Shown: one piece after another, positions 1,565-31,517 of the stretch
Layout: each line of letters opens with the position of its first letter
Position numbering within the stretch: the first letter of the stretch is position 1
NCBI GenBank assembly: GCA_964594965.1
Contig: CAZQMX010000002.1
Span: forward strand, 44,306-108,305
Origin: an uncultured Candidatus Saccharibacteria bacterium
GTDB taxonomy: Bacteria > Patescibacteriota > Minisyncoccia > Portnoybacterales > UBA2143
Direction of reading: 5' to 3'
Length of the DNA: 64,000 bases
Position numbers and translations under genes: made by a program
The notes under the pieces: generated by a model
What the model was told of the DNA's origin: nothing
Database searches by the model: none
What the model saw: the letters and a program-made list of their open reading frames with translations, nothing else

Positions 1565-2088
1565 TATTCCTTTTTCAATTCCTCCTGAACAATTTTGCTA
1601 ATAACGCCTCCTTCGGCTTTGCCTTTGAGTTCGGACATAACCGCTCCCATAACTTTGCCGGTTTCCTGTGGGCCGCTTGCCCCTAATTCTTCTATCTTTC
1701 CCTTTACTATTTTCCTAATTTCTTCTTCCGGCATTTGTTCCGGCATGTATTCCGTTAAAATGCCGAGTTCTTCTTTTTCCTGTTTGACTAAATCATCTCG
1801 ATTGCCTTTCTGATATTGTTCGATTGAATCCTTTCTTTTTTTAACTTCACTTGAAATTACTTCTAAAATTTCTTCGTCATTTAATTGGCTTAATTCTTCC
1901 AGTTTTTTCCCTCGACTTCGCTCGGGATCCCGACCTTGCGTCGGGACCTCTTTAGCTAATTTAGCCCTTTTGTCTTTTTCTTTGTTCTGAATCGCGGCCA
2001 TGAGCATTTTCAAAACAGAAACCTCAGTGTTTCTTTTAGTCGTCATTGCGCTTTTAATGTCTGTTTTAATCTTCTCTTTGAGAGACAT
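1564..2088 (-). CDS. yqeY: GatB/YqeY domain protein, with in-frame repeat insertion
   Basis: N-terminus MSLKEKIKTDIKSAMTTKRNTEVSVLKMLMAAIQNKE resembles the YqeY family. Stop/start overlaps ybeY. Contains the GC-rich element encoding VPTQGRDPERSRG. Confidence 0.7.
   Translation of the reverse strand: MSLKEKIKTDIKSAMTTKRNTEVSVLKMLMAAIQNKEKDKRAKLAKEVPTQGRDPERSRGKKLEELSQLNDEEILEVISSEVKKRKDSIEQYQKGNRDDLVKQEKEELGILTEYMPEQMPEEEIRKIVKGKIEELGASGPQETGKVMGAVMSELKGKAEGGVISKIVQEELKKE
1909..1948. repeat. GC-rich element family 1 (..CGACTTCGCTCGGGATCCCGACCTTGCGTCGGGAC..), in frame inside yqeY
   Basis: Core hairpin cccgac-cttgc-gtcggg around a GGATCC; encodes VPTQGRDPERSRG on the minus strand. Confidence 0.65.
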
Positions 2089-2162
2089 TCTTTTTTGGAA
2101 TTACGAATCAGGAATTAAGCATAAAATTCATAATTCATAATTCTTTATTCCTTATTCCATTA

Positions 2163-2417
2163 CTATCTTCTTTTCCATCTGGGTTCTTCTTCTAAAAGAC
2201 CCATTTTTCTTAATTTTTCTTTTTCTTTGGAGATCTTATTTCTTCTTAGAGCGCCCTCCCTTCTTTCACGTTTACTCTTTGTTTTTTCCAGAAATCTGGC
2301 TTTGCGGGCACGAATTAAAACACCGCTTTGCTGAATTCTTCGGGTAAAGCGCCTTAACAGACTGCGAGTTGTCTCGCCTTCTTTTTTCTTTACTTCTATG
2401 GTCATAAAAGAAATCAC
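2163..2417 (-). CDS. rpsU: 30S ribosomal protein S21
   Basis: TIEVKKKEGETTRSLLRRFTRRIQQSGVLIRARKARFLEKTKSKRERR is S21-like. The true start is probably the internal Met (MTIEV, ~2405). Confidence 0.85.
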   Translation of the reverse strand: MISFMTIEVKKKEGETTRSLLRRFTRRIQQSGVLIRARKARFLEKTKSKRERREGALRRNKISKEKEKLRKMGLLEEEPRWKRR

Positions 2418-2422
2418 CTCCT

Positions 2423-3163
2423 TTAAAAATTGATGTCATCTCTTGGTTTGGATTTTTTAATTATTTCCAATGCCTCTTCGGCTGAATCGACAATGCGATA
2501 AAAATCCATGTCCTTTTTATCAATAAATTTGTTTTTTCCGTAACTGATTTTCTCAATCCATTCAGTAACCGGTCCCCAGAATTCTTTGCCAACGCAGACA
2601 ATTGGAATATATTGGGGAATCTTTTCTGTCTGAATTAAAGTTAAAATCTCAAAAAACTCATCCAGAGTTCCGTAGCCGCCCGGGAAAAAAACATAGGCCT
2701 GAGCTGAATAAGAAAGCATGACTTTGCGGGTGAAGAAATAGTGGAAGCCCATGGCTTTTTTAATGAATTGATTCATTCGCTGGGCATATTTTAATTGGAT
2801 ATCCAATCCAACCGATTCTCCATCAGCATTATATGCCCCCTTATTAGCTCCTTCCATTATTCCCGGCCCACCGCCGGTAAAAACAGCGAATCCTTCTTTT
2901 GAAAGCATTCCAGCCAGCTTTTCGGCTTCCTTGTAACGGGGATCATCAGGAGAAACCCGGGCAGAACCAAAAAAAGTGACTGATTTGCCAAAATTACTTA
3001 GGAACTCAAATCCATCAACAAATTCGGCCATAATTCGAAATATTCTCCACTGGGCCGATTCCTTAAAATCATTTTTTTCCTTGATTTTTTCTTCCTTGGC
3101 TATCTGGGGTAATTTTGAAGCCGGAACCAATATTTTTTTTCTAATTTTTTCGTCTCCATTCAT
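2423..3163 (-). CDS. LOG family protein (cytokinin riboside 5'-monophosphate phosphoribohydrolase / TIGR00730-like)
   Basis: Motifs VFTGGGPGIMEGANKGA and PGGYGTLDEFFEILTLIQ are diagnostic of the LOG/lysine-decarboxylase-like family. Confidence 0.8.
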   Translation of the reverse strand: MNGDEKIRKKILVPASKLPQIAKEEKIKEKNDFKESAQWRIFRIMAEFVDGFEFLSNFGKSVTFFGSARVSPDDPRYKEAEKLAGMLSKEGFAVFTGGGPGIMEGANKGAYNADGESVGLDIQLKYAQRMNQFIKKAMGFHYFFTRKVMLSYSAQAYVFFPGGYGTLDEFFEILTLIQTEKIPQYIPIVCVGKEFWGPVTEWIEKISYGKNKFIDKKDMDFYRIVDSAEEALEIIKKSKPRDDINF

Positions 3164-3290
3164 ATTTGAATAATTTAATTATCTATCCTATCCTACTATT
3201 TTTTAAATTTTTTGTCAAAAGCGTCTTGTGAAAAGAAAAGCCCTTTTCTAAGGGACATTAAACCAACTATTAATTTATGAGGTAATAGGG

Positions 3291-3821
3291 TTAAATATAT
3301 TTATCGGCGATGTTGGAAGCGGCGTATGATTCAGGCTTGATTTTGGCATTAAAGCCATTACCTCTAACCATACCAACAACCTCTTTAATCATTTCACGAG
3401 TTGGTCCATTTTGACCAACATCAATATGAATCTGAAAATCGTAACTCGGTTGATTGGATTTAACAGCTGATTCTAGTTGTCCTAGAATGTCCTGAGCGGT
3501 TTTAAGAGAAAGAGTAACTTCCTGATAAATTCTATCTCTCAAGGTATGATATGTCTTTCCCCCATTGGTTTTTTTCCAAAAATATCTACCACCACGACCA
3601 ACCCGACAGACAATAATGGCCGTAACGAAATCGGCTTTTTCACAACCATTAGAATCAGTCCCGACGATTAGTCGATACTTGTTTTCTGAATCTTCTTTGA
3701 TGTAATCCGAAATTTCCCGGGCAACTCTAATCAGTTCCATTTTTCCTTTTGTCGGGCTTCGGAATATCTCTTTTTTGCTTTTCATTGTCCTTATTGTAAA
3801 ACTTTTGATAGATTTTGTCAA
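3291..3821 (-). CDS. hypothetical protein (possibly RNase H-like fold, DUF458/YkuK-like); true start likely internal Met (MELIRV, ~3740)
   Basis: ORF with good coding periodicity; IVGTDSN...IHIDVGQNGPTREMIKEVVGMV pattern weakly reminiscent of YkuK-type proteins; no firm motif. Confidence 0.35.
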   Translation of the reverse strand: MTKSIKSFTIRTMKSKKEIFRSPTKGKMELIRVAREISDYIKEDSENKYRLIVGTDSNGCEKADFVTAIIVCRVGRGGRYFWKKTNGGKTYHTLRDRIYQEVTLSLKTAQDILGQLESAVKSNQPSYDFQIHIDVGQNGPTREMIKEVVGMVRGNGFNAKIKPESYAASNIADKYI

Positions 3822-3921
3822 TTTCTTCTTTTTGCTTCTTGATATCTAAAAACTCCCGCCGAATGCGAGACTTTTCAAATCGAATATATTTACGAATGCT
3901 TTTGGGTAATTTTCTTTCCAT
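3727..3921 (-). CDS. small highly basic hypothetical protein (64 aa)
   Basis: ATG lies 2 nt after the stop of the upstream transporter gene (TAG-AC-ATG coupling). Lys/Arg-rich. Overlaps only ~14 nt with the probable real start of the downstream gene. Confidence 0.25.
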   Translation of the reverse strand: MERKLPKSIRKYIRFEKSRIRREFLDIKKQKEEIDKIYQKFYNKDNEKQKRDIPKPDKRKNGTD

Positions 3922-3923
3922 GT

Positions 3924-5063
3924 CTAAGTGGTAAAATAGTAAACCTCGTAAACCGCGCCAAGGATGAAGAAGAGGATTAGGGAATAAATTAAAAGACGGG
4001 GAAGATTAAGAGAATAGGCCGGTTTGATATCTCCTTTTTTCTTGGCTTGCAGATAAATCAGAATCATTAAAGTAATATCAATACCTAAAAATACTCCGCC
4101 GGCCAGGCTAATAATGGTAATGAAATTATTAAATCCGAGGAGGAAGAATATTAGGGGAACAAAGCAGGCCAATGCCCAGGAAAGATTCTTCTTTATCCCA
4201 ATATCATACCAGAGGATTTTTTTAAGAGTTAAGCCAATTGTTAAATACGAGGTAAAAACAGTTAAGAAGCCGAAGATAAGGGCCAGATTAACAATACCAT
4301 CGCCCAATATATTTTTCAGGCCGGTAATGGCATCATTGGTTGTATTCTGACCGGTAATGCCGGTGATAATGACAATGAAGAAAAGATAAGTCAGGGCTGA
4401 AATCAAAATTGACCAAAAGATTACTTTTTTTAAATCTTTAGGATTATCTTTGAGCATTTCTCTGATTTCCGGAATCAAAGAACTACCAAAAAGAGAAAAA
4501 AGAATTGCTCCGTAGGGAAGGAATAGATAGGTTGGATTAAAATTAAATAGGTTTGGTGTTTCAATTAAAGAAAAACCTCTTTGGAAAATAAAGAGCAGGA
4601 CAACAAAAAACAAAATTAAAAGAATTGATTCAACCCGGGCAATGCTTTTAATGCCGAAATAGATTAGGAGGGAACCGATTAAAAACAGAGCTAAAACATA
4701 GAAAAGAAGGCTTTGGCCAAAAAAAGGATTAAAAAGAGAAAAAAGAAATCCTCCGCCAACAACCAGATAAGCCAGGAGGGCGCCGCCCAATCCCAAACTA
4801 TTACTCAAGAAAGAAAGTCCCTTGGCCCATTTGCCCAAATATTTTTCAGCGTAACCGGGTAGACGATGAAGGCCTTTTGTCCTTAAAACAATTTCCCCAT
4901 AAACAAAATTTGTTAAAACGGCAATTGCTCCGATAATGATGAAATAGAGGAGCATTGTCCAGATACCGACTTTTGAAGTAATGTAGGGCAAACTAAAAAG
5001 TCCGACACCAATAATGGTCCCGGTTAAAGTTGCTAAAGCTTTGAAGAAATTTTTGTCTCTCAT
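3924..5063 (-). CDS. amino acid transporter family membrane protein (Trp/Tyr-permease-like), ~11 TM
   Basis: N-terminal GTIIGVGLFSLPY motif and multi-TM hydrophobic profile typical of amino-acid permease families. Confidence 0.5.
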   Translation of the reverse strand: MRDKNFFKALATLTGTIIGVGLFSLPYITSKVGIWTMLLYFIIIGAIAVLTNFVYGEIVLRTKGLHRLPGYAEKYLGKWAKGLSFLSNSLGLGGALLAYLVVGGGFLFSLFNPFFGQSLLFYVLALFLIGSLLIYFGIKSIARVESILLILFFVVLLFIFQRGFSLIETPNLFNFNPTYLFLPYGAILFSLFGSSLIPEIREMLKDNPKDLKKVIFWSILISALTYLFFIVIITGITGQNTTNDAITGLKNILGDGIVNLALIFGFLTVFTSYLTIGLTLKKILWYDIGIKKNLSWALACFVPLIFFLLGFNNFITIISLAGGVFLGIDITLMILIYLQAKKKGDIKPAYSLNLPRLLIYSLILFFILGAVYEVYYFTT

Positions 5064-5227
5064 AAGACCTCTTTCAAGATAATTTTTCGTTACGAAGATT
5101 AAAGATTTTGAGCGAAAATTGTGAAAAGGGAGGAGCTTATACTAGTGTATAGGCGACGAGGTTTGAACAATTTGCAGCCAAAATATTTAATCTGGAGTAG
5201 AAAGGATTGTTTTGGAAGGGGTCTAAT

Positions 5228-5455
5228 CTAGTAGGCAGGGAGATATCCTCGATTACCCAGCCAGCTTATTAAATAGACAGAAATTATTCCCCAGATAATA
5301 GAGAGGGCCAGGATAATCCCGCCCTGTTTTTTTAAATCCTCTTCTGTTAGAAAAGCAACAGCCAAAACTATCCCTGAAATAGGACTGATTAAAGTAATGG
5401 CAATTGCCAGCCAAAACCATTTCTTTTTTGAACTAAGAGTAATTTTTTCTTCCAT
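5228..5455 (-). CDS. small membrane protein (2 TM), hypothetical
   Basis: 75 aa, two hydrophobic helices; start overlaps the stop of the HIT gene. Confidence 0.3.
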   Translation of the reverse strand: MEEKITLSSKKKWFWLAIAITLISPISGIVLAVAFLTEEDLKKQGGIILALSIIWGIISVYLISWLGNRGYLPAY

Positions 5456-5793
5456 TAAAATTCCTTTATTAATCCTCCGCCTAATAAATGAAGGTGGAGA
5501 TGAAAAACTGTCTGACCGCCTCCTTTTTCAACGCAGAAAATTAAGCGATAGCCCTTTTTATCAATATTCTGCTTTCTAGCTAAATCTCTGGCTAAAAAAA
5601 TCATATCATTAATCAAGGGTTTATCTTCTTTTTCTAAATCATTGATTGACCTAATATGTTTTTTCGGGACAATTAAAAGATGAACTGGCGCTTTTGGATT
5701 AATATCCTTAAAGACGATTACCTGGTCGTTTTCAAAAACAATATCGGCTTTTTGCTTATGCTCAGCAATCTGGCAAAAAATACAATCCTTCAT
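5455..5793 (-). CDS. HIT family (histidine triad) nucleotide hydrolase
   Basis: C-terminal HLHLHLLGG histidine-triad motif; N-terminal CIFCQI zinc motif of Hint-like proteins. Confidence 0.85.
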   Translation of the reverse strand: MKDCIFCQIAEHKQKADIVFENDQVIVFKDINPKAPVHLLIVPKKHIRSINDLEKEDKPLINDMIFLARDLARKQNIDKKGYRLIFCVEKGGGQTVFHLHLHLLGGGLIKEF

Positions 5794-7127
5794 TACTTCT
5801 TAACTCTCTTTTTAATTTCTTTAACAACTTTTTCCAAAGGAACGGTTTCCTGGCTGCCGGAAGCCATATCCCGGATAATGATAGTTTCATCCAGGGCTTC
5901 TTTCTGCCCCAGAATCAGGGCAAAACGAGCATTCATCTTGTCGGCAATTTTCAACTGACTATTGATTGTATTTTTACTGAACGAACTTGATGTTTCTATG
6001 CCGGCCTGTCTTAGTTCTTCAAATAGTTTTAAGGATTTCTTCTTGCCTAATTCACCTAATTGAATCAGAAAAACCAGGGATGAATTCCTTAAAGGGACTT
6101 TAACATCCTTCTCCATCATCAGATTAACTATCCTGTCCAATCCCATAGCAAAACCAACTCCGGGCGTATCTTTGCCGCCGAGGAGTCTAACTAATCCGTC
6201 ATAGCGGCCGCCGCCGCCCAAAGCAGACTGCCTGCCCGCCGAATTGGCGGGTCGGCCATCCCCTTCTTCCGGCCAGATCTCAAAAACGGTTTTAGTGTAA
6301 TAATCCAGTCCCCGGACCAGATTAGAATTGAGGATATAGGGAACTTCAACTTCATCAAGATATTCAAGAACATTCTTAAAATGGTTATGACATTCTGGAC
6401 AAAGATTATCAATTGTCTGAGGAGCTTCTCCGGCTATCAAAACACATTTTTCATTCTTGCAATCCAACAATCTTAAAGGATTTTGTGAAAGTCGTTTCTG
6501 ACAATTAGAACAAATTTCTTTTTTTCTCCTCCGGTAGAAATTAACCAGTTTCTTTCGGTAGGCCGGTCGGCATTGGCGACAGCCAATGCTATTAATCTGG
6601 GTAATGACATTTTTAAGACCAACTCCTTTAATAACGGAGAAGAATAATTGGATTAATTGGGCATCCAGAACCGGATCTTTTTCACCAAAGATTTCAAAAT
6701 TAGCCTGTTCATGCTGTCGGTAACGGCCTTTTTGAGATCTTTCATAGCGAAAAACCGGTCCGGTGCTATAGAGTTTAATTGGGTGTGGCAAAGAAGAAAG
6801 ACCGTTTTGAAGATAGGCCCTGATAACGGCCGGGGTAAATTCCGGACGAAGGACTAATTTGTCTCCCCCTTTTGTTCTAAGGGTATACATTTCCTTTTGG
6901 ACAATATCAGTTGTCGCGCCAGTTCCCCTAATAAACAGATCAACATCTTCTATTATTGGAGTATCAATTTGTTCAAAGCCATAAGTCTTGGCTGTCTTAG
7001 AGATTACTTGCCTGGCTTTTTCCCAATAGGCCTGTTCTTGAGGCAGAATATCTCTTGTCCCCTTTGGCGCTTGAAAGGTTCTTTTTCTTTTCGGAGTTGT
7101 TGTTTTTTTCTTGCTTTTTGTTGGCAT
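5793..7127 (-). CDS. hisS: histidyl-tRNA synthetase
   Basis: GTRD motif near the N-terminus; class II motif 3 GGGRYDGL. Carries a GC-rich in-frame palindromic insertion (GRPANSAGRQSALGGGG) and a Cys-rich (4x CxxC) insertion. Confidence 0.9.
   Translation of the reverse strand: MPTKSKKKTTTPKRKRTFQAPKGTRDILPQEQAYWEKARQVISKTAKTYGFEQIDTPIIEDVDLFIRGTGATTDIVQKEMYTLRTKGGDKLVLRPEFTPAVIRAYLQNGLSSLPHPIKLYSTGPVFRYERSQKGRYRQHEQANFEIFGEKDPVLDAQLIQLFFSVIKGVGLKNVITQINSIGCRQCRPAYRKKLVNFYRRRKKEICSNCQKRLSQNPLRLLDCKNEKCVLIAGEAPQTIDNLCPECHNHFKNVLEYLDEVEVPYILNSNLVRGLDYYTKTVFEIWPEEGDGRPANSAGRQSALGGGGRYDGLVRLLGGKDTPGVGFAMGLDRIVNLMMEKDVKVPLRNSSLVFLIQLGELGKKKSLKLFEELRQAGIETSSSFSKNTINSQLKIADKMNARFALILGQKEALDETIIIRDMASGSQETVPLEKVVKEIKKRVKK
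6205..6258. repeat. GC-rich palindromic element family 2 (CCTGCCCGCC..GGCGGGTCGG), in frame inside hisS
   Basis: cctgcccgccgaattggcgggtcgg inverted repeat in an AT-rich gene; translates to GRPANSAGRQSALGG. Confidence 0.6.
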
Positions 7128-7129
7128 GA

Positions 7130-7648: not shown

Positions 7649-7656
7649 TGCTTTTT

Positions 7657-7722
7657 TGTCATTCTGAGCGAAGCGAAGAATCTGTTTAACAGATCCTTCG
7701 GGCTTTGCCCTCAGGATGACAA
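7657..7722. repeat. intergenic palindromic element (TTGTCATTCTGAGCGAAGCGAAGAATCTG...CCTCAGGATGACAA) between lepB and the LCP gene
   Basis: Terminal inverted repeats gtcattctgag / ctcaggatgac with a nested inner inverted repeat; related copy at 28473..28533. Confidence 0.6.
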
Positions 7723-7784
7723 CTCTGTTGTCAATTCTAAACTATTTCTTGTTGAAAATCAACCACTCTGATATACTTTGAAGA

Positions 7785-8780
7785 ATGACAGGAAAAAAGA
7801 AAAAAAGAATTGTTTCCTGGGTTGTATTCTTTACATTTTTCTTGTTTCTTTTTTTTCTCTATCAGATAATGCCTTCTTCTTCTTTTGAAGTCCAGTCGGG
7901 TCAGGAATTATCAGAAGAGAGAAAAATTGTTTTCAAATCCCTTCCTATAATTTCAAAAGAGGGGGATCTCAAAAAAAACATTTTAATTCTTGGTCGGCCA
8001 GGTCCGGGCTATTCCGGCAGTAACCTAACCGATACCATTATTCTGGCCCGTATTGACCAAAGCGATTCATCCAAAAAAGCAACTTTGATTTCTTTACCAA
8101 GGGATTTACTTGTTAAAGTTCCTGAAAAAGGAAATCTGACTAAAATCAATTCTCTCTACACTCTTTCCGGCATAGAGGGCCTAAAAGAGAAAATTAAAGA
8201 AATTACTGGTCTTTCAGTTAATAATCATCTCATTATTGACCTGGTTGTTTTCAAGGAAATCATTGATTTAATTGATGGTCTTAATGTCTATGTTGCTCAG
8301 GATATCCATGACCCGTATTTTCCCGGGCCAAATCACACTTACCAGACATTTAACTTAGCCGCCGGCTGGCGCTATCTTGATGGAGAGAATGCCTTGAAAT
8401 ATGCCCGGACCCGCTATACTTCGCCTAACGGCGACTTTGACCGAATGGCTCGTCAGCAACAGATTATCCAGCTTCTAAAACAAAAAGTTCTGGCCCTTAA
8501 TCCCTTATGGGACTTTCCAACCTATTTGAAAATATTTAATTCCCTTAATGAACGAATTGAAACTGACCTCTCTATTTTAGAAATGCGTCTTTTTTATCAG
8601 ATTGCCAAAGAGATTGGGGCTGATAGAATAAGGAGTGTTGTTGTCGATAAAAAGGAAACCGGACTTTTGACCGGCGGCGGAGTCATGTTTGGAGAGCAAA
8701 TGGCCTCGGTTGTCTATCCTGTTATTGGACAAGGGAATTACCGGGAAATACAAGGATATATTAAGGAAAGTATTAAATGA
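7785..8780 (+). CDS. LytR-CpsA-Psr (LCP) family protein
   Basis: N-terminal TM; LILGRPGPGYSGSNLTDTIILARID...ISLPRDL is the LCP-domain signature. Confidence 0.8.
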   Translation: MTGKKKKRIVSWVVFFTFFLFLFFLYQIMPSSSFEVQSGQELSEERKIVFKSLPIISKEGDLKKNILILGRPGPGYSGSNLTDTIILARIDQSDSSKKATLISLPRDLLVKVPEKGNLTKINSLYTLSGIEGLKEKIKEITGLSVNNHLIIDLVVFKEIIDLIDGLNVYVAQDIHDPYFPGPNHTYQTFNLAAGWRYLDGENALKYARTRYTSPNGDFDRMARQQQIIQLLKQKVLALNPLWDFPTYLKIFNSLNERIETDLSILEMRLFYQIAKEIGADRIRSVVVDKKETGLLTGGGVMFGEQMASVVYPVIGQGNYREIQGYIKESIK

Positions 8781-9346
8781 TGAAATTAATTGTTGGCTTG
8801 GGCAATCCTGGAGAGAAATATGAAAAGACCCGTCATAATTTGGGTTGGCGGGTAATTGATTTTTTAGTTGAAGAAATGGGAATTAATCAATTAAAGGAAG
8901 ATAAAAAATTTAAATCCCTGATTGGTAAAAAGAATAATATCATTTTGTCCAAACCACTGACCTTTATGAATAACTCTGGTCAAAGCGTTAAGGCCGTTGC
9001 TGACTATTTTAAAATTCTTAATCAGGATATTTTAATTATCCATGATGATATTGATTTGGATTTAGGCGAGACAAGGATACAGGAAGGCAGAGGCGCTGCC
9101 GGACATAAGGGAGTTGAATCAATTATTGAACACTTAGGAACAAAAGATTTTAAGAGAATTAGAATTGGCGTTAAACCGGCAGAAGAGAATATTGATACCC
9201 CGAAAGGGAATAAATTCCCAACGGGGCAGGCAGAAAAGTTTGTTCTAGAAAACTTTACTAACCAGGAAGAAAAGATTATTGGAGAAATAATTAAAAAGGC
9301 CGCCCAAATAATTAGGACGACTTTTAAACTACCTAGTCTTCACTAG
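8777..9346 (+). CDS. pth: peptidyl-tRNA hydrolase
   Basis: MKLIVGLGNPGEKYEKTRHNLGW start is the canonical Pth N-terminus. Confidence 0.9.
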   Translation: MMKLIVGLGNPGEKYEKTRHNLGWRVIDFLVEEMGINQLKEDKKFKSLIGKKNNIILSKPLTFMNNSGQSVKAVADYFKILNQDILIIHDDIDLDLGETRIQEGRGAAGHKGVESIIEHLGTKDFKRIRIGVKPAEENIDTPKGNKFPTGQAEKFVLENFTNQEEKIIGEIIKKAAQIIRTTFKLPSLH

Positions 9347-9496
9347 CCTACCCAGGAGCGTTAGAAACAAGTTCGCAAAAGCGAGTCATCTCTAATCTTT
9401 CAGCCGCTTGAACTAGGAGGGATTGTTCAAGTAATGGCTACTCCGCGGGCAGGCTGGTAGAGACTAGTTTGCCTATAAGAGGTCATACTATAAAAA

Positions 9497-10381: not shown

Positions 10382-10384
10382 TTA

Positions 10385-10516
10385 TCAACTCTCAATAACC
10401 AATAACCAATCAACGATCAAGTATCAATGATCAATTCTTGAATTAATTAATTTAATTGAAAATTAAGAAATTGATAATTGTTTGATAATTGAAAATTGAT
10501 AATTGAAAATTAGCTT
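10385..10516. repeat. AT-rich tract with repeated AATTGAAAATT/GATAATTG motifs (dprA-topA intergenic)
   Basis: ...aattgaaaattaagaaattgataattgtttgataattgaaaattgataattgaaaatt. Confidence 0.5.
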
Positions 10517-12586: not shown

Positions 12587-12616
12587 AAGCCGCCTCCAGC
12601 AGGGACGGCTTTTTTA
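12586..12616 (+). terminator. rho-independent terminator after topA (aaagccg-(15 nt)-cggcttt + T-run)
   Basis: 7-bp stem followed by ttttttag directly after the topA stop. Confidence 0.55.
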
Positions 12617-12631
12617 GTAAAAAAACGACTC

Positions 12632-14155
12632 TTGTCAAATGAGAAATCTTATTGTATAATCAGAATTACTATGGTCACTATTGAAAAAATTGTTGACGAG
12701 TTCAAAAAGAATCATCCCTTGGCCAGCGCCAAGGTTATTGAAAGGGCTTGTGAGTTCGCTGAAAAACATCATCGGGGACACAAGAGAGCGTCTGGCGAAC
12801 CATATTTTAATCACTGTCTTAGCACAGCTTTGACTTTAGCAGAGTTAAAGTTGGACGCTAAAACAATTGCCGCTGGCCTACTTCATGATGTTCTAGATGA
12901 TACTAGGGCAACTCCCGGTCAAGTAAAGAAGAATTTCGGGGAGAATATTTTAAATCTTGTTAAGGGCGTCTGTAAAATGGGAAAGATTAAATATCGGGGC
13001 AAAGAGAGAATGGTTGAAAACTTAAGAAGATTGTTTTTAGCCATGGCTAAAGATATCCGGGTAATTCTGATTAAACTGGCTGACCGGCTTCATAATATGA
13101 AAACCCTTGATGCCTTACCAGAAGAAAAGCAAAAGAGAATTGCCTTGGAAACCCTAGAAATCTACGCTCCTTTAGCTGATCGGCTTGGTATTAATGAATT
13201 AAAAGGAGACCTGGAAGACCTGGCTTTTAAATATGTTTATCCTGAAGAATACCAGGAAATAGTTAGCCAGGTTGAAGATAAATACATCCAGGGAAAAAAG
13301 TATCTTCAAAAGATTATTCCGATTATCAAAAAAACTTTGGCCAAAAAAGATGTCCGGGTAATAGAAATCCATGCCCGGACCAAACATCACTATAGATTAT
13401 ACCGGAAACTTCTCCGTCATGATATGGATTGGCATAAGGTTTATGACCTGGTTGCCTTGCGAATTATCGTTCCGGATATTGAAAACTGCTACGCTGCTTT
13501 AGGAATAATTCATAAAAAATGGAAGCCGCTTATTGGCCGAATTAAAGATTACATTGCCATACCCAAACCCAATGGCTATCAATCGCTTCACACAACCGTT
13601 TTTTGCCAAGGAGGAAAGATTACTGAATTCCAGATCAGAACTCCTCAAATGCATCAGGAGTCAGAATATGGTATTGCTGCCCATTGGTATTACAGCGAAG
13701 AAAAAGGCCTTAAATCATATATTAAAAAGAAAATTTTAAGACGGGAACCAAAAAGAGAATTCAAAGAAGAAGAACTAGGCTGGGTCAAACAACTTCAGGA
13801 ATGGCAAAAAGAAAAATTCTCCTCGCCGGAAGAATTTATTGATTCTTTGAAAATTGATTTTCTTAAGGACCGGATTTTTGTCTTTACTCCCAAGGGTGAT
13901 GTTATCGACCTGCCCGAAGGGGCAACTCCAATTGATTTTGCTTATCAGATTCACAGCGATATTGGCCACCAGTGCACCGGCGCAAAGATTGACGGAAAAT
14001 TAAGTTCTTTATCTCGACCGCTCCAAAATGGGGAGATGATTGAAATTATTACCCAAAAAAACAAAAAGCCAAACAGGGATTGGCTTAAGTTTGTTAAAAC
14101 CAGCGAAGCCAGAAAAAGAATTAAAAACTGGTATCGAAAAGAGGAAAATCCTTAA
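12632..14155 (+). CDS. rel: bifunctional (p)ppGpp synthetase/hydrolase, short Rel/SpoT homolog (HD + synthetase + TGS)
   Basis: HD motif HHRGHKRASGEPYFNH...LLHDVLDD; synthetase motifs RTKHHYRLYRKL and YQSLHTTV; TGS region FVFTPKGDVIDLPEGATPIDFAY. No ACT domain. Start probably at MVTIEKIV. Confidence 0.85.
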   Translation: MSNEKSYCIIRITMVTIEKIVDEFKKNHPLASAKVIERACEFAEKHHRGHKRASGEPYFNHCLSTALTLAELKLDAKTIAAGLLHDVLDDTRATPGQVKKNFGENILNLVKGVCKMGKIKYRGKERMVENLRRLFLAMAKDIRVILIKLADRLHNMKTLDALPEEKQKRIALETLEIYAPLADRLGINELKGDLEDLAFKYVYPEEYQEIVSQVEDKYIQGKKYLQKIIPIIKKTLAKKDVRVIEIHARTKHHYRLYRKLLRHDMDWHKVYDLVALRIIVPDIENCYAALGIIHKKWKPLIGRIKDYIAIPKPNGYQSLHTTVFCQGGKITEFQIRTPQMHQESEYGIAAHWYYSEEKGLKSYIKKKILRREPKREFKEEELGWVKQLQEWQKEKFSSPEEFIDSLKIDFLKDRIFVFTPKGDVIDLPEGATPIDFAYQIHSDIGHQCTGAKIDGKLSSLSRPLQNGEMIEIITQKNKKPNRDWLKFVKTSEARKRIKNWYRKEENP

Positions 14156-15081
14156 GCTTTGGAAAGTAAATTAACCAATTGGTCTAATTCTCCCTGGTTG
14201 TTAAATTCAACCCTAACATGACCAAGATCGCCTCTCTGGGTAATACTGACCCGGCGACCAAGGGCTTGTTGAAGCTCGCTTTCTAATTTCTTGAAAAGCG
14301 GGTTTTTTGGTCCAAAAGATTTTGCTTTTTCCGGCGCTGCCATTTTCCTGGCTTTTTCTTCTGCCTGGCGAACACTTAAATTCTTTCTAATAATTTCTCT
14401 GAAAATAGGGAGGCGGACTTCTTGCTTGGCTAACAAAAGGGCGCGGCCGTGTCCCTCGCTAATTTTATTACTCCTGATTGAATTTTGAACTTCCGAAGGT
14501 AGAGTTAAAATCCTCATGGCATTACTCACCGTTGATCGGTCCTTGCCTATTTTCTCGGCAATTTCATGGTGTTTCAAACCAAAATCATCCTGAAGTCTCT
14601 TAAAAGCCAAAGCTGCTTCAATGGCATTAAGGTTTTCTCTCTGAATATTTTCAACTAAAGCAATCTGCAATCTTTCGTTAGCCCGGCTGTCTTTGATAAT
14701 GACCGGGACGCTTGGCAGTCCGGCTAATTTAGCTGCCCGCCATCTTCTTTCTCCGGCAATCAATTCATATTCAACCTGGCGACCCCGTTCGGTCGCTTTT
14801 TCCAGTTTAGAAACAATTAATGGCTGTAAAATCCCATGTTCCCTGATTGAATCAGCCAATTCGGTTAAGCCTCCTCTTGATAAATCTTTTCTGGGTTGTT
14901 CGGAATTCGGCCTGATTTTATCAACTTCAATATTAAAAATACTCTCCTTTTTGGGCAGACTTGAATCAGGTTTTTCTTTTTGTCCCTTAACTAAATCTCT
15001 TAGCTTTGATTCCCTTTTAGGAATAAGCGATTGAAGTCCTCTACCTAATGATGTTGCCATAAAACATAAAACATGGAACAT
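14152..15081 (-). CDS. parB: chromosome partitioning protein ParB (Spo0J)
   Basis: GLPSVPVIIKD...IALVENIQRENLNAIEAALAFKRL ParB box and HTH. Probable true start is MATSLGRGLQSLIP (~15060), matching the ParB N-terminal GLGRGL motif. Confidence 0.85.
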   Translation of the reverse strand: MFHVLCFMATSLGRGLQSLIPKRESKLRDLVKGQKEKPDSSLPKKESIFNIEVDKIRPNSEQPRKDLSRGGLTELADSIREHGILQPLIVSKLEKATERGRQVEYELIAGERRWRAAKLAGLPSVPVIIKDSRANERLQIALVENIQRENLNAIEAALAFKRLQDDFGLKHHEIAEKIGKDRSTVSNAMRILTLPSEVQNSIRSNKISEGHGRALLLAKQEVRLPIFREIIRKNLSVRQAEEKARKMAAPEKAKSFGPKNPLFKKLESELQQALGRRVSITQRGDLGHVRVEFNNQGELDQLVNLLSKA

Positions 15082-15102
15082 GAAGCATGGAACAATTTAT
15101 AT

Positions 15103-16046: not shown

Positions 16047-16123
16047 CTAATAGGGTTCGCCCCGTCATTCGACGGGGCGCCACATCGGATGATGTGGCGA
16101 CTCCCACCCCAGGCACATTAAAA

Positions 16124-16148
16124 TACCCTGCTTGAGCAGGGTATTTTA
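16124..16148. terminator. rho-independent terminator hairpin (accctgct-tgag-cagggt + T-run); likely bidirectional between tRNA-Leu and tsaC
   Basis: Perfect 8-9 bp GC-containing stem, 4-nt loop, followed by atttt. Two further small hairpins (gccccgtc..gacggggc, gccacatc..gatgtggc) precede it. Confidence 0.6.
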
Positions 16149-19198: not shown

Positions 19199-20080
19199 TT
19201 AAATATTAAATAATTCCCGGGAGTTTTTGGTTGTTTGTTTAGCAACTTCCTCAAATTTAATTCCTTTAATCTCGGCTATTTTTTCTGCAACATATTTAAC
19301 ATAAGCTGGTTCATTTCTTTTGTTTCGATTTGGTTCCGGAGCTAAATATGGACAATCGGTTTCAATTAATATCTTATCCAAAGGAATCTCCCTTATTACT
19401 TTATCATAATCTCGGGCATAAGTAATCAATCCATTGAAACTAATATGTAATCCCATTTCAATAATTTTCTTTGCCTGGGAAAGACGACCCATAAAACAAT
19501 GGACAACTCCTTTTAATCCGGGTGCGCAGACCATTGGACAAGAAGCACAGCCAAGATTAAACATAGTTAAAATTTCAATTAAATCATCGTAAGCCTTGCG
19601 GCAATGGAAAACAATTGGTTTTCCCATTTGTTGGGCCATTTCCAATTGTCTGACTAAAGCTTCTTTTTGTTTTTCCCTTCGACTCCGCTCAGGATCCCGA
19701 CCTTGCGTCGGGACTTTCTTATCGATATCTCCATAATCCAGACCAATCTCTCCAACTCCAACCACTTTTGGGTCTTCAAGTAATTTAAGATATTTTTTCT
19801 CATCTAATTCCTCGTATTCCCTTTCTTCTATTTCTCCTTTCCAATTTTTTTCCCTTCCGCCTTCAAGAACATGAATTGGATGAAGTCCAACAATGGCATA
19901 AACCCCTTCCTTGTATTTGTTGGCGTATTCAACCGCTCTTTTGCTCGTTGAATACTGAGCGCCAACATTAATCATCCAGACACCATTATCAAGAGCCCGG
20001 CGAACAACTTTATCCCCGTCTTCCTTAAAATCTTTGAAATTAACATGGGCGTGAGTGTCAATTAATATTGGCTTAGGCAT
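19199..20080 (-). CDS. tatD: TatD family metal-dependent DNase, with in-frame repeat insertion
   Basis: IDTHAHVNF start and GEIGLDY box. Internal GC-rich element encodes KKVPTQGRDPERSRRE. Confidence 0.8.
   Translation of the reverse strand: MPKPILIDTHAHVNFKDFKEDGDKVVRRALDNGVWMINVGAQYSTSKRAVEYANKYKEGVYAIVGLHPIHVLEGGREKNWKGEIEEREYEELDEKKYLKLLEDPKVVGVGEIGLDYGDIDKKVPTQGRDPERSRREKQKEALVRQLEMAQQMGKPIVFHCRKAYDDLIEILTMFNLGCASCPMVCAPGLKGVVHCFMGRLSQAKKIIEMGLHISFNGLITYARDYDKVIREIPLDKILIETDCPYLAPEPNRNKRNEPAYVKYVAEKIAEIKGIKFEEVAKQTTKNSRELFNI
19676..19714. repeat. GC-rich element family 1, in frame inside tatD
   Basis: cttcgactccgctcaggatcccgaccttgcgtcgggac; encodes KKVPTQGRDPERSRRE. Confidence 0.65.
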
Positions 20081-22208: not shown

Positions 22209-22351
22209 TTCATTATTAACGCAGCGAGCGAGGGAAATGAAAACTCGTTTTCATTTCCGAGCAAGCAAGTTAATATAATATTATATTAAATCAAAAAACG
22301 CCCTTTTTGGCAAGCCCCGTAAAACGGGACAGGGGCGCTTCTGAAATCAGT

Positions 22352-27908: not shown

Positions 27909-28468
27909 CTTTTTATTTCCTCATTAATTAAAGACTGAACAAAATTGAGCGGATTTTTTTGTTGCCCATATCCCAAAAATTCCAATAACCTATTTTCATA
28001 ATTATTAACAACCCCTTTTATATCCTTTTTCTGATTAAGACTCTCAAAACTCCCTAAAAGCAATTGCCAAATATTTTCGTCTTTTTCCGGTCCGGCAATT
28101 AATTTATCAATGATTTCTGCTAAATAGTATCCTCCGGCTAAAGATGATAAATCTTTCCGAAGGGAAGAAAAATTCTCAAGCGTTTCAGCGCCGGTAATAA
28201 TATCAAAGCCTCTGCCCGGCCCGCCTGCAACGCTTGATGCGTAGCGTCTGCGGGCAGGAGCAATCACCAAATGACTCAATAAAAAAAGTTCCAGGTGTCC
28301 TTTTAATTTGGCCTGGTTTTTTCTGACTGACTTGGCTTTGACTAGGATTTTACCGTAATCTTTGGTGTAAATGGTCAAAAGCCGGTCTAGGTCATTAAGA
28401 TTTTGTTTTTTAATAATAATGCCTTCAGTTTTGTAGAGCATATTGTTTGTCACTCTGAATATTAACAT
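27878..28468 (-). CDS. recO: DNA repair protein RecO, with in-frame GC-rich insertion
   Basis: MLYKTEGIIIKKQNLNDLDRLLTIYTKDYGKILVKAKSVRK OB-fold N-terminus. Internal insertion APARRRYASSVAGGPGRG. Confidence 0.8.
   Translation of the reverse strand: MLIFRVTNNMLYKTEGIIIKKQNLNDLDRLLTIYTKDYGKILVKAKSVRKNQAKLKGHLELFLLSHLVIAPARRRYASSVAGGPGRGFDIITGAETLENFSSLRKDLSSLAGGYYLAEIIDKLIAGPEKDENIWQLLLGSFESLNQKKDIKGVVNNYENRLLEFLGYGQQKNPLNFVQSLINEEIKSCSFLVNVLK
28214..28258. repeat. GC-rich palindromic element family 2, in frame inside recO
   Basis: cccgcctgcaacgcttgatgcgtagcgtctgcgggcagg; near-identical to the reverse complement of the argS copy; encodes APARRRYASSVAGGPGRG. Confidence 0.65.
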
Positions 28469-28472
28469 TCAT

Positions 28473-28533
28473 TGTCATTCTGAACGCAGTGAAGAATCTG
28501 TTCGTATAGATCCTTCGACTTCGCTCAGGATAA
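28473..28533. repeat. intergenic element related to 7657..7722 (GTCATTCTGAACGCAGTGAAGAATCTG...CGACTTCGCTCAGGAT) between recO and ileS
   Basis: Shares both the gtcattctga..gaagaatctgtt and the cttcgacttcgctcaggat modules (the latter also present in the in-frame family-1 copies). Confidence 0.6.
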
Positions 28534-28568
28534 CTATTTATAACTAAATCAAAGATTTAGATAAATAG

Positions 28569-31517
28569 TTACTTCTTAATTCCGAGCCAGAGATTATGGC
28601 CGTTTAATTTGATCTCCTTTTCAACCAAAAAGACTTCCCCGATGTTTTTAGAGTCGGGATCCCGACCTTGTGTCGGGACTTTCTTTTTTGGCCCGCCCGC
28701 ATTGCCTTGCGAAGCATGGCGGGCGGGTCCGGCTTCAATTTTTCTGGCTGAAACTTCTTTTTTAATTTCTTCGAGGTTGTTTTTAATTAAATCGCTTAGT
28801 TTTGATTCACCGGCTGAATAGCGGAAATATGCTGGTTGGCCTGGTTTTAATCCGGCGTCTTTTCTCATTCCCTGGATAAAACGGATTAAATCCCGAATCA
28901 TTCCTTCTGATTCTAATTCTGAAGTAATTTTTGTATCTAATTTAATACTTTTGCCAAAATCAACTTCTTTAACATTAACTTCTTCTTTGATTAATTGGGT
29001 TAATTCTTTATCCTGGACAATCTGTTTTTTGGTAATTATTAATTTCTTCAGAGGTTGTCTGACTTTAATTCCTTTTTCTGCTCTTTTAGCCAGAGCCAAA
29101 GCAACAATTTCTCTGACATCATTCATTTTCTTTTCCAGCTTTTCATCAATTAAAGATTTGTCCGGCTTGGGATAACCGCAGAGATGAACGCTTTCTTTGT
29201 CTTTTCCGGTCCGAAGCTGAAGATAAATTTCTTCGGAAATGAAAGGGGTGAAAGGAGCGATTAATTTGGATAAATTAAGTAAGGTTGAATAGAAAATCTG
29301 TGAGGCTTCTTCTTTTTGTTTTCTATTCTCCGGTTTCTGAAACCTCGATCTTGACCGTCTGATATACCAGTTAGACAAATCTTCAACAAATTCCTCAATT
29401 AAACGAGCAGCCGAGACAACATCATATTTCTCTAAATTATCAATGACCAAAGTGTTTAATTGATTAAATTGAGAAACAATCCATTTATCCAGAATGAATC
29501 TTGGCTTTGTTTTCTTTGGTTTAAAGTTTTTGTCTTTGTAAGTATTGAAAAAGACAGCCGAGTTATGAAGCGTTCCAAAAACTCTTCTGTTTTTGTCGGC
29601 AACATCCTTAACATCAAATCTCTTTGGCTCTCCAGCGGAATTGATGGTGTATAAGTACCAACGGAGAGTGTCGGCTCCGAATTGTTCGCACATTTTCCAG
29701 GGATCAACAATATTGCCCTTTGACTTTGACATTTTCTTGCCTTTCTTATCCAAGACATGGCCAAGAGAAATGACATTTTTAAAACAAGCCCCATTCTTAA
29801 TTTCTCCGGCTTCCTCCATTAAAGTCGCGATGGCAAGGAGAGAATAGAACCAGCCTCTGGTCTGATCAACGGCCTCGCAGATATAGTCGGCGGGGTAGTG
29901 GTCTTTTAATTCCTTCTGGCTGTTTTTCTGATGAGGATAGCCCCATTGAGCAAATGGCATTGCTCCTGAATCAAACCAGACATCAATAACTGACTTTTCC
30001 CGAATCATTTGGCCGCCGCACTGGCATTTGAATTTAACCTGGTCGATATGTGGCCGGTGAAGATCTTTAATTTCTTTTCCCAGTTCCTTTATACTGCCAA
30101 TTGCCTTTTCCTTATCGCATTTCTGGCATTTCCAGATTGGCAAAGGGGTCCCCCAGTATCTTTCCCTTGAAAGAGCCCAATCCTTGGCTTCTTTAATAAA
30201 TTCGCCAAACCGGCCATATTTGGTGTGATTCGGCTCCCAATTAATCTTTTCGTTGTTATCTGTCAGCTTTTTTCGAAGAGATGACATTTTAATAAACCAG
30301 GAATCTTCGGCGTAATAGAGAAGAGGGGTGTCGCATCGCCAACAAAAAGGATAATCATGCTCGTATTCTTCTTCCTTGAATAAGAGGTTTTTCTCTTTTA
30401 AGTAATTAATAATTTTCTTTTCGGTTTCTTTATCTTTAACATATTGATTAGCTAAACCATATGGAGCCAAATCATTGGTAAAATATCCTTTTTGATCAAC
30501 AGTATGGATTTCAGGCAAGCCGATTTCTTTACCCAGATTATAGTCATCTTCGCCATACATGACAGCAGTATGAACAATGCCGGTTCCTTCTTCGGTTGTA
30601 ACAAAATCAGCTAAAACAAGGTAATGGGATTTCTTTTTACTTTTTTTAACTGATTCAATTTCAAAGAGAGGCTGGTATTCAAGACCAACCATATCCTTTC
30701 CTTTGAGCTCTTTTTCTACTTTATAGTCGCCTTCAATAATTTCTAATCTCTCCTTGGCTAAGATATATTTCTTGCCCTGGTATCCTATCTTAACGTAATC
30801 AATATTCTTTCCAATGGCTAAAGCGACATTTCCCGGCAGGGTCCAGGGAGTAGTTGTCCAGGCTAAAATATTGTCCCCCTTTTTTACTTTTTCATTTCCT
30901 TTGGTAATTTTAAAATTAAGATAAACTGAATTCTCTTTTACTTTCTCGTATCCCTGAGAAACCTCGTGGGTGGATAGAGCTGTTCCGCAGCGGGTACAAC
31001 GGGGAACAACCTTAAATCCTTTGTAAAGCAGTCCTTTTTCCCAAACTTTTTTTAAAATATGCCAAACGCTTTCAATATATGAATTTTCGTAAGTAATATA
31101 TGGATTATCCATATCTATCCAATAACCAATCCTATCTGTCATTTTTTCCCATTCGTCCTTGTATTTCCAAACACTTTTTTTACATTCCTGATTGAATTTA
31201 TCAATTCCATATTTCTCAATATCGTCTTTTCCTTTGAAATTTAATCTTTTTTCAACTTCAATTTCAACTGGCAGGCCATGCGTGTCCCAACCGGCCTTTC
31301 GATGACAAAAAAATCCGCGCATGGTTTTGTACCGCGGAATGATATCTTTAAAAGCTCTGGCTTCAACATGGTGCATGCCTGGTCGACCATTGGCTGTTGG
31401 CGGACCTTCAAAAAAAACAAAACTTTTTTTGCCTTTGTTTTTTTTCAAACTTTTTTCGAAAATTCCAGACTTTTTCCAGAATTTTAGAATTTTTAATTCA
31501 TTCTTTGAAAAGTTCAT
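28569..31517 (-). CDS. ileS: isoleucyl-tRNA synthetase (type 2-like), with C-terminal repeat insertions
   Basis: KMSKSKGN; WALSRERYWGTPLPIW; CWRCDTP zinc motif; 982 aa. C-terminal region contains two adjacent GC-rich elements (AGPARHASQGNAGGPKKKVPTQGRDPDSK). Confidence 0.9.
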   Translation of the reverse strand: MNFSKNELKILKFWKKSGIFEKSLKKNKGKKSFVFFEGPPTANGRPGMHHVEARAFKDIIPRYKTMRGFFCHRKAGWDTHGLPVEIEVEKRLNFKGKDDIEKYGIDKFNQECKKSVWKYKDEWEKMTDRIGYWIDMDNPYITYENSYIESVWHILKKVWEKGLLYKGFKVVPRCTRCGTALSTHEVSQGYEKVKENSVYLNFKITKGNEKVKKGDNILAWTTTPWTLPGNVALAIGKNIDYVKIGYQGKKYILAKERLEIIEGDYKVEKELKGKDMVGLEYQPLFEIESVKKSKKKSHYLVLADFVTTEEGTGIVHTAVMYGEDDYNLGKEIGLPEIHTVDQKGYFTNDLAPYGLANQYVKDKETEKKIINYLKEKNLLFKEEEYEHDYPFCWRCDTPLLYYAEDSWFIKMSSLRKKLTDNNEKINWEPNHTKYGRFGEFIKEAKDWALSRERYWGTPLPIWKCQKCDKEKAIGSIKELGKEIKDLHRPHIDQVKFKCQCGGQMIREKSVIDVWFDSGAMPFAQWGYPHQKNSQKELKDHYPADYICEAVDQTRGWFYSLLAIATLMEEAGEIKNGACFKNVISLGHVLDKKGKKMSKSKGNIVDPWKMCEQFGADTLRWYLYTINSAGEPKRFDVKDVADKNRRVFGTLHNSAVFFNTYKDKNFKPKKTKPRFILDKWIVSQFNQLNTLVIDNLEKYDVVSAARLIEEFVEDLSNWYIRRSRSRFQKPENRKQKEEASQIFYSTLLNLSKLIAPFTPFISEEIYLQLRTGKDKESVHLCGYPKPDKSLIDEKLEKKMNDVREIVALALAKRAEKGIKVRQPLKKLIITKKQIVQDKELTQLIKEEVNVKEVDFGKSIKLDTKITSELESEGMIRDLIRFIQGMRKDAGLKPGQPAYFRYSAGESKLSDLIKNNLEEIKKEVSARKIEAGPARHASQGNAGGPKKKVPTQGRDPDSKNIGEVFLVEKEIKLNGHNLWLGIKK
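28650..28680. repeat. GC-rich element family 1, in frame inside ileS 3' end (adjacent to a family-2 copy)
   Basis: gagtcgggatcccgaccttgtgtcgggac; encodes KVPTQGRDPDS. Confidence 0.6.
28689..28730. repeat. GC-rich palindromic element family 2, in frame near the 3' end of ileS
   Basis: cccgcccgcattgccttgcgaagcatggcgggcggg; encodes AGPARHASQGNAGGP. Confidence 0.65.

Follow-up and report, generated by a model that had tools for sequence, protein, structure and literature searches.

How does the same GC-rich hairpin come to lie, in frame, within three unrelated genes of one bacterium? The question is raised by a 64-kb stretch of the Candidatus Saccharibacteria assembly GCA_964594965.1 (contig CAZQMX010000002.1, positions 44,306 to 108,305; hereafter the window), in which copies of a short palindromic repeat are found inside yqeY, tatD and ileS. 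The core of the repeat, GGATCCCGACCTTG(C/T)GTCGGGA(C), 22-23 nt long, has three matches in the window (1925-1947, 19692-19714 and 28657-28679, all on the plus strand), and the count expected from 100 dinucleotide-preserving shuffles is zero. Its shorter form, GGATCCCGACCTTG(C/T)GTCGGGAC, also occurs three times, each time in frame in one of the three genes. These counts bear out an earlier sequence-only reading of the window, which had pointed to near-identical GC-rich elements in the three reading frames. The window is AT-rich (GC content about 38%), so the copies appear as conspicuous GC islands. They are spaced by 17.8 and 9.0 kb, all inside genes, at a density of about one per 20 kb. All three host open reading frames (ORFs) are long, lie on the minus strand and match the Pfam families YqeY, TatD_DNase and class-I tRNA synthetase/IleS. 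The genes and copies are as follows.

1564-2088, minus strand: host gene yqeY, 174 aa; the insert lies in a variable K/E-rich linker
1909-1947, minus strand: chimeric copy in yqeY, 39 nt; in mRNA sense GTCCCGAC-GCAAG-GTCGGGA followed by TCCCGAGCGAAGTCGAGGG; peptide VPTQGRDPERSRG
19199-20080, minus strand: host gene tatD, 293 aa, with the insert in the loop that follows the GEIGLDY strand
19676-19714, minus strand: chimeric copy in tatD, 39 nt; peptide VPTQGRDPERSRR
28569-31517, minus strand: host gene ileS, 982 aa; both hairpin inserts of this gene lie in a C-terminal loop
28637-28679, minus strand: canonical double-hairpin copy near the ileS 3' end, 43 nt; peptide VPTQGRDPDSKNIG

The hairpin of the core is CCCGAC-CTTGC-GTCGGG. 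GGATCC, which had been taken for the centre of a single hairpin, is the junction of two neighbouring hairpins, and the element is a two-hairpin unit. In mRNA sense the ileS copy reads GTCCCGAC-ACAAG-GTCGGGA/TCCCGAC-TCTAAAAAC-ATCGGGG, with the junction at the slash (fold z-score -3.25); the RNA fold of the yqeY copy has -19.1 kcal/mol and a z-score of -2.7. The tatD and yqeY copies are identical at 36 of 39 bases. The ileS copy shares with them only the hairpin of about 25 nt and represents a different subtype. The peptide once described as the same in all three proteins is the same only in the stretch VPTQGRDP; the remainder differs between VPTQGRDPERSRG, VPTQGRDPERSRR and VPTQGRDPDSKNIG. At 37717-37733, CCCGATTAAACATCGGG could be a solo hairpin; it lacks the GGATCC junction and was left uncounted.

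Architecture and range of the family

The basic unit of the family is about 40-46 nt long and forms a head-to-tail double hairpin, (W)AGTCCCGAC-loop-GTCGGGA/TCCCGAC-loop-GTCGGGACT(W), in which the four 7-nt arms have one sequence; the ileS copy is built in just this way. A scan of one genome per species with the pattern GGATCCCGAC-N5-GTCGGGAC yielded at least 118 loci, as compared with about 17 expected by chance (our estimate, for 18 specified bases in 596 Gb). The full double hairpin TCCCGAC-loop-GTCGGGA/TCCCGAC-loop-GTCGGGAC, whose right half is the scan match, is present at no fewer than 70 genome loci. The remaining 48 of the 118 listed matches fall outside the family, as unrelated hairpins or matches in coding sequence; GC-rich genomes (≥0.59 GC) account for about 40% of these 48.

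The record titles assign almost all double-hairpin loci to Patescibacteria, the candidate phyla radiation (CPR), and to many classes within it; they include Saccharibacteria, Nomura-, Kuenen-, Falkow-, Magasanik-, Uhr-, Sung-, Zambryski-, Doudna-, Ryan- and Vogelbacteria and Paceibacteria. A few metagenome-assembled genomes (MAGs) with the double hairpin are titled Omnitrophota, WOR-1/Saganbacteria or Gammaproteobacteria, labels that are unconfirmed. The loop variant of the window itself, CTTGY, was found at 21 loci in a metagenome scan, and all 21 are double hairpins. One 40-mer recurs without any change in loci labelled Saccharibacteria, Falkowbacteria and Uhrbacteria.

The hairpins have a stem of 7-8 bp and a loop of 5 nt, and their predicted folds are more stable than those of shuffled sequences (z-scores from -2.0 to -4.5 for the elements and from -5.7 to -6.1 for the long palindromes described below). 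In the left hairpin, whose stem was free to vary in the scan, the closing pair is C-G in 57 copies, T-A in 13, A-T in two, G-C in one and mixed in about six. Stem pairing is conserved, with compensatory C-G/T-A changes; the closing-pair variants may be subfamilies rather than repeated independent events. The flanks of 104 copies carry information to about 3 nt on either side only, where they extend the palindrome (WAGT...ACTW), and are random beyond. The majority of copies (71 of 97, about 73%) are intergenic or located in short ORFs, and about 14 of the 97 are located deep within ORFs of 150 aa or more, where both orientations and several frames occur. Since the ORF copies are in both orientations and several frames and most copies are intergenic, the element is one of DNA and not a peptide module. 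It forms a discrete unit, copies of which have reached unlinked sites.

Two sets of loci are of separate interest. In the JGI contig Ga0209211_10047048 (L145:844-883), a copy inside a 286-aa ORF has mutually reverse-complementary loops (GCAAG and CTTGC), which makes all 41 nt of the element one perfect palindrome with GGGATCCC at its centre. Three orthologues of about 508 aa, from MAGs labelled Nomurabacteria or Saccharibacteria (L070, L107 and L014), have a double hairpin 25-45 nt before the stop codon (SPD.KSGSRPK.VGTSQEA), with differing loops. The insertion could be old and vertically inherited, and would lend itself to tests of selection on the stems.

The yqeY and tatD copies depart from the basic unit. 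They combine one hairpin with the module CCYTCGACTYCGCTCRGG, which comes from a second, longer palindrome family. Since the CCYTCGACTYCGCTCRGG module stands in place of the left hairpin in both, these copies represent a chimera that was itself copied. The following palindromes and relatives of the module are also present in the window.

7658-7720, no strand: palindrome between lepB and lytR, 63 nt, GTCATTCTGAGCGAAGCGAAGAATCTG-TTTAA-CAGATCCTTCGGGCTTTGCCCTCAGGATGAC; fold z-score -6.1
28474-28534, no strand: palindrome between recO and ileS, 61 nt, with the module CCTTCGACTTCGCTCAGG as right arm; fold z-score -5.7
35398-35434, plus strand: the module in two degenerate units (GTCCCGAGCGAAGCGAATCCCGAGCTAGTCGAGGGAC), located downstream of the tmRNA gene
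60727-60744, minus strand: solo module CCCTCGACTTCGCTCGGG, an 18-mer identical to that of the yqeY copy, in an intergenic GC-rich patch

Four sites share the module CCYTCGACTYCGCTCRGG, namely the yqeY copy, the tatD copy, the 60727 site and the 28474 palindrome in its right arm. The right arm CCTTCGACTTCGCTCAGG is one base off the module of the tatD copy, and the 18-mer CCCTCGACTTCGCTCGGG is also found at 1909-1926 on the plus strand, within the yqeY copy. Both palindromes had been noticed in the sequence-only reading (as 7657..7722 and 28473..28533) and are real, as are the degenerate relatives that it placed within 35291..35440 and 60681..60863. Its suggestion that the palindromes are built from modules of the same element is correct for CCYTCGACTYCGCTCRGG, shared through the right arm at 28474, and incorrect for the arm GTCATTCTGAGCG...GAAGAATC ('gtcattctgagcg...'), which is confined to the two intergenic palindromes and missing from the ORF copies. 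In loci L125 and L128, ileS and recO abut, without a spacer like that holding the 28474-28534 palindrome.

Recent gains and the protein loops that receive them

A protein search identified a close relative, GCA_964596615.1 (L119 and L124), with a 97.8-kb contig syntenic with positions 1-21.6 kb of the window and a DNA identity to it of 83-91%, or about 88%. This relative provides insertion-free orthologues of both genes in the shared region. Its yqeY (L119) lacks the element, the window gene having a net gain of 27 nt with 12 host nucleotides replaced, and its tatD (L124) likewise lacks it, with a net gain of 30 nt in the window. The lepB-lytR spacer of L119 is without the 7658-7720 palindrome, a clean 77-nt difference with flanks about 97% identical. 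Of the indels of at least 6 nt that separate the two genomes, and likewise of those of at least 9 nt, nearly all represent additional sequence on the window side; several of these segments can form other hairpins and are mostly GC-rich, one of them being a clean 33-nt insertion, in frame, in pth.

Among the matches listed, the insert is missing from 119 other YqeY homologues and from 119 other TatD homologues, save one independent case in each family. Since these homologues have no insert, the polarity is clear and corresponds to gain in the lineage of the window. The element-bearing yqeY allele is present in assemblies of four different samples, and thus the insert is not an assembly artefact. 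These comparisons show that the window lineage gained copies after the split from the relative with about 88% identity. The view of the repeat as a recently active miniature mobile or recombinogenic element able to land in ORFs is therefore upheld by filled and empty sites, by more than 100 empty YqeY and TatD orthologues and by dispersal in many genomes, with mobility itself inferred from presence and absence. Neither of the two observations that were named beforehand as refuting this view was made: the element does exist elsewhere, and its peptide is no conserved feature of the proteins. Target-site duplications, for which a check had been proposed, were found neither in the filled/empty pairs, including pth and the 7658 spacer, nor in the flanks of 104 copies.

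The copies seen in essential genes are in frame, free of stop codons and confined to flexible surface loops, where, by translation of the sequence, they add short hydrophilic peptides of the VPTQGRDP... type. In the AlphaFold model of TatD (38-sequence alignment, mean predicted local distance difference test score 90.7) the barrel is otherwise confident and the insert forms a low-confidence coil at residues 121-130, between the strand 106-115 and the helix 130-152. The YqeY insert lies at the inter-domain linker, where it divides the Pfam match, and no Pfam domain covers it. Both observations fit insertion into tolerant surface loops.

The same loops have been used repeatedly. In a YqeY orthologue (L122, 64% identical) the linker holds, at the same position, a canonical double hairpin whose stem belongs to the T-A subfamily, with the peptide APIQDRDPDQSVG. 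The TatD loop after GEIGLDY has in-frame copies of other palindrome types in three other lineages, for example VILNEAKRNEES...RSFADAQDD and SLRAKRSNP...IAASQTPRND; in a further lineage VPMQDRDPDSEGVG occupies a different TatD loop. Three of the 27 closest IleS homologues (the window, P0246 and P0252) carry the element in the same C-terminal loop, and most relatives lack it. In a neighbour-joining tree of IleS, built on 879 columns with the element-bearing loop excluded, the carriers are spread over three clades, in which the sequences nearest to them (86-87% identical) are empty, and the carriers differ in stem subfamily. On these grounds three independent gains are likely in IleS, and a single ancient insertion was rejected.

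The IleS site holds a second insert, which belongs to a separate hairpin family (family 1).

28692-28727, minus strand: family-1 GC hairpin CCCGCCCGC...GCGGGCGGG in ileS; -29.9 kcal/mol, z-score -4.1

It is 12 nt away from the copy described above (family 2). This arrangement had been read as a nested insertion; both hairpins are intact and family 2 is alone at this site in the IleS of other lineages, so these are two adjacent insertions in one permissive loop, and the nested reading was rejected. The family-1 hairpin is present in none of the other IleS homologues among the matches listed. It also occurs in frame in argS (GGCCCGCCCGCATYGC...GCGGGCGGG, 33070-33105), and probable relatives are located in recO and hisS (28202-28262 and 6193-6276), the hisS region being 17 nt longer than in the close relative.

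At the empty IleS sites (L126, about 3010-3040, against L125, about 5800-5830) the sequence E-L-K-P-K is conserved, and its Pro-Lys codons CCTAAG align with CCTAAA of the inserted second-hairpin loop. The alignment may be fortuitous, may be left over from an older copy, or may point to a preferred target. The idea that the variable second-hairpin loop is trapped host sequence, hinted at by CCTAAA and by Pro-Lys in filled and empty IleS, was rejected on account of near-identical loops in unrelated genes and lineages, such as L070 and L107.

Known repeat classes and routes of spread

Repetitive extragenic palindromic (REP) sequences are 20-40-bp hairpins, often arranged in dimers and mostly extragenic, with intragenic copies in known genes of several species; their dimers are predominantly head-to-head, head-to-tail ones being negligible, and the CGTC type, to which RPE-4 and RPE-6 of Rickettsia conorii belong, has no dedicated transposase (Di Nocera et al. 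2013, PMC3733652). The element described here resembles REPs, BIMEs and REPINs in its GC-rich hairpin unit of 20-40 nt with a 7-8-bp stem and a loop of about 5 nt, paired in dimers, and in its tens of dispersed copies, mostly extragenic (73% intergenic here), some of which add short peptides to known genes. It also lacks target-site duplications and, like CGTC-type REPs, has no evident dedicated transposase. In contrast to REPs, it has no unpaired GTAG/CGTC end tag in the flanks of 104 copies, CGTC being found inside the stem only; its dimer is head-to-tail with four identical arms; no RAYT gene was seen among Pfam-annotated genes of the window and the relative, and no gene family recurs in 88 loci; and its hosts, the Patescibacteria, are absent from the survey in PMC3733652.

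In-frame insertions of Rickettsia palindromic elements (RPEs) are summarised in a review of MITEs, the miniature inverted-repeat transposable elements (PMC10969869; Ogata et al. 2000/2002). As in that case, palindromic repeats lie in frame in unrelated housekeeping genes of a reduced-genome, host-dependent bacterium, add surface peptide segments and are also found between genes (PMC10969869, PMC3733652); empty orthologous sites were found here as well. The differences are in size (100-150 bp or so for the RPE-1 type, 39-46 nt here), in host range (one genus, Rickettsia, against many class-level lineages of Patescibacteria, as judged by record titles and the names of homologues) and in the independent hits on the same protein loop in several lineages. 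A sequence relationship was not found, the RPEs being set apart by their descriptions. The modular build, with the hairpin and the CCYTCGACTYCGCTCRGG module variously combined in the ORF chimera and as an arm of the longer spacer palindromes, resembles the BOX elements of Streptococcus pneumoniae (PMC2229807, PMC10969869). BOX modules are longer and mostly intergenic, have no sequence similarity to the element and belong to another host group.

Mini-elements derived from IS200/IS605 (PATEs) have two hairpins, no target-site duplication and a fixed target tetra- or pentanucleotide, with tnpA in the genome. Two hairpins, the lack of target-site duplication and one chromosomal orientation of the three window copies are PATE-like; the element differs in its identical stems, in the absence of a target tetranucleotide from the flanks of 104 copies and in that tnpA was not seen in the window annotation. 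The lack of target-site duplication rules out a DDE-type MITE, and the lack of a target tetranucleotide argues against the IS200/IS605 type.

Several other candidates were rejected. A DNA uptake signal would be expected at about one copy per kb, whereas TCCCGAC/GTCGGGA occurs 12 times in 64 kb, seven of these within the three elements, and the gains are insertions and not point substitutions. The copies, being 17.8 and 9.0 kb apart inside genes and not regularly spaced, do not form a CRISPR array or tandem repeat. The only Rfam matches above threshold in the window are tmRNA and one tRNA; around the elements, scores are at most 16 bits against thresholds of 34-47. A phage-borne element is contradicted by a single match in 2.9 million viral contigs. 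In the literature on repeats in Patescibacteria and on these sequences we found no description of such repeats, which is not proof of absence. The repeat is a new family within a known kind, that of small palindromic interspersed repeats able to sit in frame in genes. Less ordinary are its breadth across Patescibacteria, the double hairpin with four identical arms and the repeated independent strikes, in one frame, on the same loops.

As to its spread, we favour, with moderate confidence, a short non-autonomous interspersed repeat of the REP or RPE kind, recently gained, recognised as a hairpin and copied by a trans-acting enzyme, and we are less confident of the enzyme than of the rest. It is the folded hairpin of the unit that would be recognised, most probably within single-stranded DNA where an AT-rich site opens easily, and an enzyme encoded elsewhere in the genome or otherwise supplied would copy it in without duplicating the target. 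Disruptive copies would then be purged by purifying selection. The intergenic copies, about three quarters of all, may secondarily serve as hairpins at RNA 3' ends or for RNA stability.

Several observations weigh against this account. No transposase or RAYT-like gene was seen among the Pfam-annotated window genes (about 18.5-61 kb) or in the 1-21.6 kb part, read from the annotation of the relative, and no gene family recurs beside the element in an all-against-all BLAST of 914 ORFs from 88 loci, in which housekeeping clusters reach four loci at most. The flanks of 104 copies contain no conserved target tetranucleotide of the kind known for IS200/IS605 or for GTAG/CGTC-tagged REPs. Only three copies are present within the 64-kb window. 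In five ORF comparisons of filled and empty sites, gain is accompanied by loss or replacement of 9-27 host nucleotides (net gains of 18, 21, 27 and 30 nt), which simple insertion does not predict. Independent gains appear to have struck the same loop three times in IleS and twice in YqeY, and all seven ORF copies of the YqeY, TatD and IleS sets share one orientation and frame, other frames being found elsewhere in Patescibacteria. Such recurrence suggests a preference for site or frame, or copying between similar A-rich coding contexts, rather than random transposition. The return to the same site may reflect any of three causes: a scarcity of permissive sites, a preference for A-rich K/E-coding DNA, or copying between similar coding contexts.

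These points bear on an explanation without a transposase, which we regard as possible but clearly less probable: an earlier copy would serve as the source for a new site with A-rich microhomology, by template switching or ectopic short-patch gene conversion. The hairpin would grow by fold-back (snap-back) synthesis, and natural transformation, on which Patescibacteria rely, may help. Replacement of 9-27 host nucleotides in place of pure addition fits such copying, as do the lack of target-site duplication, target motif and associated gene, and the constant frame and orientation of the seven ORF copies, which copying between coding contexts would keep. The flanks of the yqeY and tatD copies are alike over 61 nt (84% identity), including A/T-rich host codons, and AAGAAAG directly precedes the element on the 5' side in both the tatD and ileS copies; the same loops are struck repeatedly. 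Both the X-loop-X'-X-loop-X' architecture and the chimera with the second family are such as template switching yields. Set against this are the essentially clean insertions of the pth hairpin (33 nt) and the 7658 palindrome (77 nt), whose flanks are not shared, and the sharp ends and random flanks over 104 copies. The flanks of the IleS pairs follow lineage, imported flanking sequence not being evident, and microhomology in K/E-coding DNA is expected by chance. Template switching or conversion explains host replacement, constant frame, recurrence, architecture and chimeras better than enzymatic copying, and clean insertions and sharp ends less well.

A bolder form of this explanation is, in our judgement, unlikely. 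In it, the double hairpin would spread Patescibacteria-wide without a transposase by copying guided by hairpins or microhomology, with transformation possibly involved; in independent lineages it would repeatedly place the same peptide of 13-16 residues, read in one frame, within the same surface loops of essential proteins, and the near-identical 40-mers of class-level lineages would be shared by horizontal exchange.

It is very improbable that the copies are functional cis-elements, kept or created by selection at each site, and not selfish copies. A role as hairpins at RNA 3' ends or for RNA stability, as terminators or as binding sites of a conserved Patescibacteria protein would fit the conserved stem pairing with compensatory changes, the identical 40-mer in three class-level lineages, the 73% intergenic location and the T-rich sequence that follows some copies. 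This is countered by presence or absence between close relatives at otherwise conserved sites, copies within essential ORFs, where a terminator would harm, an inconsistent position relative to genes, a low density (about one per 20 kb in the window) and a 7-mer density far too low for a role like that of uptake signals. The proposal that VPTQGRDP... is a conserved protein motif or domain with DNA likeness as a by-product, suggested by the common frame of the YqeY, TatD and IleS copies, is effectively refuted: the closest orthologues (84-87% identical) and more than 100 others lack the peptide, the same DNA is mostly outside genes and elsewhere in other frames and orientations, no Pfam domain covers the peptide, which splits the YqeY match, and it is modelled as a disordered loop.

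Other repeats of the window and the meaning of the family

The window contains further repeats and insertions. A third hairpin type (CCTGCCCCG...CGGGG) is found at 9198-9230 in pth (ORF 8777-9346, plus strand) and at 60690-60725; the pth copy is the clean 33-nt insertion mentioned above, missing in L119 and without target-site duplication. An AT-rich inverted repeat pair of 69 nt (983-1051 and 10444-10512) is 90% complementary over a distance of 9.4 kb. The close relative lacks 64 nt around 1081, which suggests that this is another presence/absence repeat family. An AT-rich repeat of the CATGTTCCATG type (15058-15094 and 40753-40789) is 85% matching, and L124 lacks 32 nt at about 15093 and 27 nt at about 15124. 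Three hairpins, CCACATC..GATGTGG, CGCCCCGTC..GACGGGGCG and TACCCTGC..GCAGGGTA with TTTT, lie downstream of tRNA-Leu (16053-16143) and show up as segments of 40 and 27 nt that the relative lacks. A terminator-like hairpin, AAAAACCAATTGGGATTGGTTTT, recurs at gene ends (53594-53625 and 56016-56047, more weakly at 14059 and 52963).

A 47-nt direct repeat (34390-34436 and 36284-36330, 83% identical) ends at the ATG of the ORFs starting at 34434 and 36328, and looks like a duplicated 5' leader or promoter region. The ORF 56660-58423 (minus strand, 587 aa, no Pfam match) has a diverged tandem periodicity of about 90 nt at 56670-56975. An ORF of 228 aa at 46359-47045 (plus strand) forms an insertion between yebC-like and ruvC genes and has a NUMOD3 motif, as is typical of the DNA-binding modules of homing endonucleases, and a small pair of a YafQ-like toxin and a ribbon-helix-helix (RHH) antitoxin, with weak Pfam matches, is located by ruvB (43768-44282, minus strand).

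Patescibacteria have genomes among the smallest and most streamlined of bacteria. Despite this streamlining, the lineage of the window has recently acquired selfish-looking hairpin repeats in essential translation and repair genes, namely ileS, tatD and yqeY, with other hairpin families in argS, pth, hisS and recO. Such inserts explain odd GC-rich peptides and length variation in Patescibacteria proteins, and can mislead alignments and the delineation of protein families. The pairs of filled and empty sites, together with the recurrent loops, constitute a natural experiment on the tolerance of proteins to insertion. That neither a target-site duplication nor a transposase was seen is relevant to the long-standing question of the movement of REP- and RPE-type repeats, and near-identical units in distant classes of Patescibacteria could mark DNA exchange among them.

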